Shown here: positions 48,936 through 49,428 of the stretch, in pieces
How the letters are laid out: every line of letters begins with the position of its first letter
How positions within the stretch are numbered: the first letter of the stretch is position 1
Assembly: GCF_003334765.1 (NCBI RefSeq)
Contig: NZ_QOWT01000004.1
Reading direction: 5' to 3' (one strand)
DNA length: 64,000 bases
Source: Escherichia coli
GTDB taxonomy: Bacteria > Pseudomonadota > Gammaproteobacteria > Enterobacterales > Enterobacteriaceae
Program-made: the position numbers and the translations under genes
Notes under the pieces: generated by a model
What the model saw: the letters and a program-made list of their open reading frames with translations, nothing else
Databases searched by the model: none
Told to the model about the DNA's origin: nothing

Positions 48936-49378
48936 TTGTTATGTCTTATCCCACGGTATTTAATATGGTTCATTAGGATGTTTATTTCTTGATTTTGCAT
49001 ATGAGTATATTACCCCCCCCCTCAAAAAAATAAATTAATTAAAATGATGGCTTATATAAAATAAAATTTAAAGCAAGGAATCTCAATGGATGTTAAACAA
49101 AATGAGATTTTGTGAAAGCAATAAATTATTGACTTCGTTTTAGATTTGTTTAGCTATAATGTTATACATTCAAATGACTGAACATCCTGTAATTAAAACA
49201 TAGCCTTTATGCTACTTTGTGCCAATTTGCTAAACATTATGGTTGCCTTTTTATATAACGATAATAATGAATATAAGCATGACATGAGAATAAGGTTTCA
49301 ATTTTTGAGTTATATAGGAATGATTTAACCTGTTCCTGGCTAAAATACATATAACCGGATGATGACTAAACCAAAATA

Positions 49379-49428
49379 CATGTGCGTTAAGTATTGAAAC
49401 GGACGTGTGGCACGGCCGTTGTTTTTAT
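49379..49428 (+). repeat. Diverged second copy of the icd 3' end/terminator (hairpin plus T-run)
   Basis: About 40 of 47 positions match 48516-48562 (catgtg..ttaa.tattgaaacgg.cgt...ccgttgtttt), with stem-preserving changes. Confidence 0.7.

Follow-up and report, generated by a model that had tools for sequence, protein, structure and literature searches.

How transcription is organized in the spacer between iraM and ycgX of Escherichia coli is the question raised by a 64,000-nucleotide stretch of DNA (contig NZ_QOWT01000004.1 of RefSeq assembly GCF_003334765.1; the whole stretch is called the window hereafter, and all positions count from its first letter). The anti-adaptor encoded by iraM stabilizes RpoS, and activation of the gene by PhoP is established in the literature. 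An initial annotation, made from the letters alone, had proposed that a plus-strand promoter and a second icd-like terminator delimit an unannotated transcript of about 260 nt in this spacer, either a small RNA (sRNA) or the messenger of a 39-codon open reading frame (ORF). A plus-strand primary transcript indeed starts there, but its start, at 49177, lies 10 nt from the site near 49167 that had been predicted, and it is served by other promoter elements. The best explanation, for and against which the balance is about level, is that the control region of a horizontally acquired iraM-ymgK cassette contains two divergent promoters of the PhoP class II type, the rightward one being predicted to be activated by PhoP.

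The Plus-Strand Start and Its Promoter

Data published for E. coli K-12 transfer directly to this locus because the window differs from K-12 over positions 48400-50100 by a single base, a C of the homopolymer run at 49013. From the published coordinates of ymgK and ymgL, an offset was derived by which, near iraM, the window position plus 1163067 gives the position in MG1655 (U00096.3). As a check, a nearby TGTACA-18-TACAAT promoter has its last base at 51055, so that its start is expected at 51062; this equals 1214129, the listed site TSS_1214129_+. Start sites were taken from the Cappable-seq tables of Forrest 2022 (PMC8894471), which cover the wild type and a Δhns strain and refer to U00096.3. 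RNA 3' ends were taken from Adams 2021 (PMC7815308), comprising Term-seq from LB medium at optical densities of 0.4 and 2.0 and from M63 medium, as well as DirectRNA-seq with and without bicyclomycin.

The plus-strand start TSS_1212244_+, at window position 49177, appears in the lists for wild type and Δhns alike and rises about 20-fold in Δhns (log2 fold change (log2FC) 4.30, -log10 p 10.5; Forrest 2022). The TATAAT hexamer of the initial annotation is too far (17 nt) from this start. TACATT, at the normal distance of 7 nt, is the correctly placed -10; no usable -35 accompanies it. Upstream of TACATT is a PhoP-box-like direct repeat, here named Box 2, which is oriented with transcription, has two mismatches to (T/G)GTTTA-N5-(T/G)GTTTA and fills what had been taken for a 20-bp promoter spacer. 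From the end of Box 2, 12 nt lead to TACATT and 25 nt to the start.

An internal control for this arrangement is provided by the phoP P1 promoter (42644-42660, minus strand), in which a perfect box, GGTTTA-TTTAA-TGTTTA, is followed after 12 nt by CATAAT. The start predicted from it beforehand, at 42619 of the window and 1190483 of MG1655, matches the listed TSS_1190483_- (Forrest 2022). The geometry of Box 2 is that of a bona fide PhoP promoter, since phoP P1 shows the identical layout in the same window and the same dataset. Among the 30 PhoP-like boxes of the window, Box 2 alone is followed by TAnnnT at +12, and when the local 700-bp AT-rich region is shuffled, 2.6% of the shuffles contain a box with TAnnnT at this distance.

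Alleles of the region are found in E. coli at identities of at least 99% (1352 genomes), 90-95% (2360), 80-90% (579) and 60-80% (30). An alignment of five alleles, reaching down to 77% identity, has 72% of its columns invariant; on the rightward side these include the two half-sites of Box 2 as well as TACATT and the start base 49177, and on the leftward side the -10 of iraM and the first half-site of the element described below as Box 1. Box 2, TACATT and the plus-strand start are likewise unchanged in all 26 extra copies obtained from viral contigs, which are mostly prophage predictions running into the host region and served only as extra alleles. The upstream regions of the iraM-like genes of Stx2 phages and of Escherichia albertii were considered as homologues of the control region and set aside, as they show no homology to it. 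From its sequence, Box 2 is a candidate PhoP site, and binding of PhoP to it, with activation of the start at 49177, is about as likely as not.

The Hexamers TTGACT and TATAAT

The promoter first proposed for the plus strand consisted of TTGACT and TATAAT. TTGACT is present at its site, but it matches TTGACA at five of six positions and is thus not the perfect -35 it had been called; the 20-bp spacer (49135-49154) is read directly from the sequence, and with a spacer of this length the pair is missing from a consensus scan made with spacers of 16-18 bp. Pairs of the form TTGACN-N15-21-TATAAT are expected 0.22 times per shuffled window, at least one being found in 20 of 100 shuffles. Because shuffles yield similar pairs and the DNA is AT-rich and full of promoter-like sites, the motif pair alone is no more than chance. 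Neither hexamer is conserved. The G of TTGACT is confined to the K-12-like allele, the other four alleles of the alignment reading TTCACT, and at the position of TATAAT three of the five read TAAAAT or TAAAAC. The exact K-12-type 65-mer is found in 1342 of the 3905 genomes having the region; the 26 extra copies carry TTCACT/TATAAT (16), TTGACT/TATAAT (9) or TTCACT/TAAAAT (1). Given this variation and a start 17 nt past TATAAT, neither hexamer is an element of the promoter in use.

The 20-bp spacer matches the 19-20 bp of MerR-type spacing, and on this basis a link to the nearby MerR-family regulator BluR had been suggested. A dyad operator was sought in 49135-49154 and only a trivial 5-mer inverted match was found, together with the direct repeat; no 9-mer or 10-mer is common to the spacer and the BluR-controlled ycgZ promoter on either strand. 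Control by BluR is not borne out by these comparisons, and the spacing is explained by the fact that a PhoP-type direct repeat sits between two unused hexamers.

The Leftward iraM Promoter and Its Leader

The start of iraM transcription (Table 1) is preceded by a -10 hexamer and, upstream of it, by a second PhoP-box-like element, Box 1. In the K-12 allele Box 1 has three mismatches; its second half-site reads TATTGA or TGTTGA elsewhere, nearer to the consensus. Box 1 and Box 2 are 53 bp apart from centre to centre, and the two starts, 49057 and 49177, are separated by 120 bp. Further minus-strand starts in the tables of Forrest 2022 are TSS_1212826_- (window 49759) and TSS_1213137_- (window 50070, the ycgX start), and these tables list no start at MG1655 12123xx-12126xx. 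The iraM/ycgX spacer is marked as a binding site of both H-NS and RNA polymerase holoenzyme (Shimada 2014). The motif TTCATA-17-CATAAT (49610-49582), which stems from systematic evolution of ligands by exponential enrichment (SELEX; Shimada), was examined as the iraM promoter and rejected, as it is situated upstream of ymgL and not at the mapped iraM start.

Between this start and iraM lies a 22-codon ORF, which begins 57 nt after the transcription start and is open in four alleles. Its stop codon overlaps the iraM start codon in the sequence ATGA, which suggests translational coupling. The origin of this ORF is seen in UTME-7, a rare E. coli allele in which an intact 84-aa gene of the YmgB/AriR family (2278-2532 of the compared UTME-7 locus; Pfam PF10798, 1.8e-15; 40% identity to K-12 AriR) lies between the control region and iraM. 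According to the alignment with UTME-7, the 22-codon ORF is what K-12 and most other strains have kept after losing about 430 bp by deletion.

Two further observations concern the same region. Just upstream of the start of the 22-codon ORF, the iraM 5' leader contains a C homopolymer (49014-49022; a G-run on the minus strand), with nine C in the window and eight in K-12, which is shorter and interrupted in other alleles; it may slip, because its length differs between near-identical strains. Box 1 is enclosed by a perfect 7-bp inverted repeat, AATCTCA/TGAGATT (49079-49085 and 49103-49109, with a gap of 17 nt), whose arms are invariant in the five alleles and whose loop is variable; it may be the site of another dimeric regulator.

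Fate of the Plus-Strand RNA

The only plus-strand termination signal reported in this region is a Rho-dependent one peaking at 49243 (Adams 2021). Reads upstream and downstream of it number 45 and 42 without bicyclomycin and 122 and 293 with it (Rho score 2.57, p 9.4e-5). No Term-seq 3' end is recorded at MG1655 1212100-1212599 under any of the three growth conditions, in which expression is possibly too low to reveal one. The plus-strand RNA from 49177 is scarce, H-NS-repressed and Rho-limited.

Several results speak against a discrete sRNA of about 260 nt, as had been envisaged. No 3' end was mapped at the downstream hairpin, and the RNA 49177-49428 folds no better than its shuffled versions (z = +0.52). 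RNAalifold returned a covariation term of +2.08 for the region, which is unfavourable. Rfam, searched at permissive thresholds, gave sub-threshold matches only (the best, SNORD72, reached 30.6 bits where the gathering score is 43), and sRNA predictions based on RIL-seq contain no entry for the region. Nothing is listed there by SMRT-Cappable-seq (Yan 2018) either, a method which selects long transcripts and is hence uninformative here.

The 39-codon ORF is present and lacks a Shine-Dalgarno sequence, both as stated in the initial annotation, but it is broken in three of the five alleles, by a stop after 3 codons, by loss of the start (16 codons) and by replacement with 27 codons of different sequence, respectively. 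It has no family match, and the supplement of Stringer 2021 has no novel-ORF entry at its coordinates; as a gene it was rejected on account of its destruction in these alleles. Two of them carry one change each inside ymgK, in both cases a synonymous one. Four alleles encode the same YmgK, and the allele of 77% identity keeps its length.

The gap between iraM and ycgX had been regarded as unexplained intergenic DNA. This premise is outdated, since RefSeq places the validated minus-strand genes ymgK and ymgL inside it, the products of which were both seen as tagged proteins (VanOrsdel 2018, Table 1; PMC6001520). ymgK lies fully antisense to the plus-strand RNA from 49177. A study of small proteins under Mg2+ starvation mentions none of ymgK, ymgL and iraM.

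The Terminator Copies and the iraM-ymgK Cassette

The claim of a second icd-terminator-like copy holds: a 43-nt repeat with 84% identity is found at 48518-48560 and at 49383-49425. These direct repeats, designated DR-L and DR-R for left and right, are 865 bp apart and bound a cassette of 31% G+C, of which iraM is the cargo. DR-L folds at -15.3 kcal/mol on both strands, as compared with -10.2 kcal/mol for DR-R, whose stem has an A/G mismatch, with UUGUUUUUAU. On the plus strand, DR-R offers the hairpin AACGGACGT-GTGGC-ACGGCCGTT followed by TGTTTTTAT, so that the proposed terminator exists in form, but no RNA 3' end maps to it. The stem defects of DR-R differ between alleles and are uncompensated. 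Because its hairpin is the weaker one and each allele has its own uncompensated stem defects, DR-R looks like a decaying duplicate of the icd terminator.

Among 5426 complete E. coli genomes, 3848 carry the cassette and about 1,570 lack it precisely; absence of iraM from CFT073 is known from the literature. An iraM-less strain has one repeat copy, in which the DR-L hairpin is joined to the right flank of DR-R, and because this single copy is a hybrid the breakpoints of presence and absence coincide with the repeats. ORFs and annotation between DR-L and DR-R give only iraM, the remnant ORF and ymgK, and no recombinase or integrase. The polymorphism would be due either to insertion or to loss in the iraM-less strains.

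Homologues of IraM (65%) are accessory genes of Stx2 phages, where they are placed between stx2B and nanS-p, and the anti-adaptor family travels as phage cargo, because its members adjoin stx2AB/nanS-p in Stx2-converting phages. A protein scan of genome contigs with IraM found only a contaminant contig of 558 nt and a 62% homologue in E. albertii; judging by the large ORFs on its flanks, the latter may lie in a phage-like setting. In the two loci compared, the iraM-like genes (62-65%) are at 3001-3324 of one and at 4001-4336 of the other. The contig of 558 nt (NZ_MTSD02000045.1), which belongs to an assembly of Oceanospirillum linum, matches E. coli iraM at 100% identity over 47 residues and is almost certainly contamination.

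Table 1. Positions of the genes, promoter elements and termination signals discussed in the text.
Feature	Position	Strand	Description and source
icd	47259-48509	+	ORF list
DR-L	48518-48560 (hairpin 48533-48555)		Genuine icd terminator, left cassette repeat; repeat family, terminator scan, folding
iraM	48612-48935	-	ORF; RefSeq; NCBIfam NF007393, 172.6 bits vs cut-off 121
22-codon ORF	48932-49000	-	TGA overlaps iraM ATG (ATGA); remnant 5' end of YmgB/AriR-family gene
Minus-strand transcription start	49057	-	TSS_1212124_-; log2FC 5.6 in Δhns; 122 nt upstream of iraM ATG
TAAATT	49065-49070	-	-10 for iraM start; sequence; invariant in 5 alleles
Box 1	49083-49099	-	PhoP-box-like TGTTTA-ACATC-CATTGA; sequence; 12 nt to -10, 26 nt to start
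TTGACT	49129-49134	+	-35 of initial annotation; sequence; out of position for mapped start
Box 2	49136-49152	+	PhoP-box-like direct repeat CGTTTT-AGATT-TGTTTA; pattern search, 2 mismatches
TATAAT	49155-49160	+	-10 of initial annotation; sequence; 17 nt before mapped start; allele-variable
TACATT	49165-49170	+	-10 hexamer; 7 nt before start 49177; invariant in alleles
Plus-strand transcription start	49177	+	TSS_1212244_+; Cappable-seq, wild-type and Δhns lists
ymgK	49193-49237	-	14 aa, MFSKLAQSSIKAMF; RefSeq; tagged protein detected (VanOrsdel 2018)
39-codon ORF	49209-49328	+	ORF of initial annotation; not conserved; most likely no gene
Rho-dependent termination region, peak	49243	+	MG1655 1212310, 'orphan'; Adams 2021, Supplementary file 2
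DR-R	49383-49425 (hairpin 49398-49420, T-run to 49428)		Decayed icd terminator copy, right cassette repeat; repeat, folding
ymgL	49473-49583	-	36 aa, outside cassette; RefSeq; tagged protein detected (VanOrsdel 2018)
ycgX	49636-50040	-	ORF list
bluR	50261-50992	-	ORF list
bluF	51197-52486	-	ORF list

In the bluR-bluF spacer, the plus-strand promoter at 51026-51062, already referred to as a coordinate check, has its start TSS_1214129_+ in both wild type and Δhns; transcription from it enters bluF in antisense, and the annotation shows no plus-strand gene there. A 28-nt stretch of icd (47447-47474) is 82% complementary to a stretch of iraM (48796-48823), the two mRNAs being similar and not complementary there; such a match is rarer than expected for 4.5 kb.

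Proposed Scheme and Alternative Explanations

According to the scheme proposed here, the 865-bp AT-rich foreign cassette between the two copies of the icd terminator would hold two promoters of PhoP layout placed back to back. The leftward promoter would drive the 22-codon remnant ORF together with iraM, and the rightward one would yield a low-abundance, non-coding RNA running antisense through ymgK. H-NS keeps this RNA about 20-fold down, Rho would stop most of it some 70 nt downstream, and any read-through past the Rho region would meet the weakened DR-R. As an extension of the scheme, PhoP would fire both promoters at low Mg2+, and the plus-strand transcription or the RNA itself would be a working part of the iraM switch; this extension is a long shot. 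The RNA would act only in cis, if at all, and any function of it is speculative. A number of observations speak against divergent PhoP-type promoters. PhoP-like boxes with two mismatches are common, 30 being found in the window as compared with 16.5 expected, and a published account of Box 2 as an upstream site for iraM may already exist. The wild-type plus-strand signal is low, with 45 and 42 DirectRNA-seq reads in two 800-nt intervals, and conservation of the block 49161-49237 could stem from ymgK or from minus-strand functions.

The main rival is that 49177 is a spurious sigma-70 start in AT-rich foreign DNA, silenced by H-NS and cleaned up by Rho, in which case the PhoP match would be coincidental and the RNA functionless. 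This possibility is considered unlikely on balance, with a good deal in its favour: the local G+C content is 28-32%, compared with 49% for the whole window; promoter-like sites are in excess at 47.5-51.5 kb (19 observed vs 10.8 +/- 3.0 expected); derepression in Δhns is 20-fold, and neighbouring starts likewise appear or rise there; a Rho-dependent region follows; two-mismatch boxes are frequent; and the RNA is devoid of structure, covariation and a conserved ORF. A chance origin would, however, have to account for a geometry that is exact to the nucleotide and equal to that of phoP P1 in the same dataset, for a combination of box and TAnnnT that no other of the 30 boxes shows and whose local chance is 2.6%, for the invariance of Box 2, TACATT and the start base where alleles differ at 28% of the columns, and for a position next to a known PhoP-activated gene. 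In PhoP counter-silencing of acquired genes, the positions and orientations of boxes can vary. Box 2 could be a real PhoP site and yet belong to iraM, as a distal element helping PhoP to displace H-NS, with the plus-strand start as a by-product. The 53 bp to Box 1 correspond to about five helical turns and would put both boxes on the same DNA face, iraM is itself H-NS-repressed (log2FC 5.6) and PhoP-activated, and the K-12 version of Box 1, which has three mismatches, is weak; against a role confined to iraM, TACATT and the start base, which matter to the plus strand only, are invariant as well, albeit within a generally conserved block. Such a role for Box 2 is judged rather improbable.

The model of the initial annotation, namely a TTGACT-20 bp-TATAAT promoter, possibly BluR-controlled, that produces an RNA of about 260 nt ending at 49398-49426 and acting as sRNA or encoding a 39-aa peptide, has in its favour that the motifs are present, that a start on the plus strand was mapped 10 nt away from the prediction and that the hairpin with its T-run is of plausible intrinsic-terminator form (-10.2 kcal/mol). 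It is largely refuted and has now very little chance of being correct: the start is 17 nt from TATAAT and the hexamers are unconserved, the spacer contains neither a dyad nor a motif of the ycgZ promoter, Term-seq gives no 3' end, and the RNA has a fold z of +0.52, a covariation term of +2.08, no Rfam family at threshold and no place among the RIL-seq-based predictions, its ORF being broken in three of five alleles and without a Shine-Dalgarno sequence.

Comparison with Known Systems

The rightward promoter resembles the class II promoters of PhoP, such as phoP P1, mgtA and mgrB, in having an oriented direct repeat 12 nt before the -10 and 25 nt before the start, and no usable -35. It differs in that its upstream half-site is degenerate (CGTTTT), that a role of PhoP is a prediction here, and that its product would be a non-coding antisense RNA instead of an mRNA. 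A PhoP-dependent cis-antisense RNA, AmgR, is known from the mgtCBR operon of Salmonella. Here as there, a PhoP-type promoter in a PhoP-regulated acquired locus would fire against the sense transcript; the two RNAs have no sequence relation, however, and the present one overlaps ymgK upstream of the iraM promoter and not the regulated mRNA.

With the spurious promoters that are silenced by H-NS and terminated by Rho (Singh 2014; Forrest 2022), the rightward promoter shares a G+C content of about 30%, a weak -10, the lack of a -35, the 20-fold derepression in Δhns and bicyclomycin-sensitive termination shortly downstream. In contrast to these, start 49177 is detected already in the wild type, its elements are conserved, and it is set on a PhoP-type box. 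The divergent, overlapping PhoP promoters of treR and mgtA (Yamamoto 2002) likewise stand back to back in one short region; the iraM region differs in its separate boxes, 53 bp apart, its starts 120 bp apart, and its one non-coding partner.

A parallel for the cassette is offered by the duplicated attachment site of e14 at icd (icdC pseudogene), where foreign DNA beside icd is likewise flanked by a duplicated 3' piece of icd and one copy serves icd while the other decays. The iraM repeat, however, comprises only a terminator of about 45 nt and no icd coding sequence, and the element measures 865 bp and has no integrase.

Concluding Remarks

Summarizing, the plus-strand start itself, which is contained in a published supplementary table, as well as iraM, ymgK and ymgL are already known, and the PhoP-type architecture of the antisense promoter may be new. 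The case shows how, in AT-rich DNA, a -35/-10 pair that looks like the consensus can flag a real start for the wrong reason, and the duplicated icd terminator is accounted for as marking where a small gene cassette ends. Should PhoP dependence not hold, an ordinary antisense start suppressed by H-NS and Rho remains.

Through iraM, the low-magnesium, acid and osmotic signals of PhoQ/PhoP are coupled to how stable the general stress sigma factor RpoS is, and activation of its H-NS-silenced foreign promoter has been only partly described. If the proposed scheme is true, a second PhoP-type promoter, directed antisense through ymgK, would add a testable element to the iraM switch and would be a possible E. 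coli counterpart of the PhoP-dependent antisense control of Salmonella. Under the extension of the scheme called a long shot above, divergent transcription and supercoiling could open up the filament of H-NS that covers the iraM promoter, and the plus-strand transcription or its RNA could also keep transcripts of ycgX-ymgL-ymgK from reading through into iraM and reduce the synthesis of YmgK. An unannotated PhoP-dependent antisense RNA would in that case help to set the stability of RpoS in E. coli.

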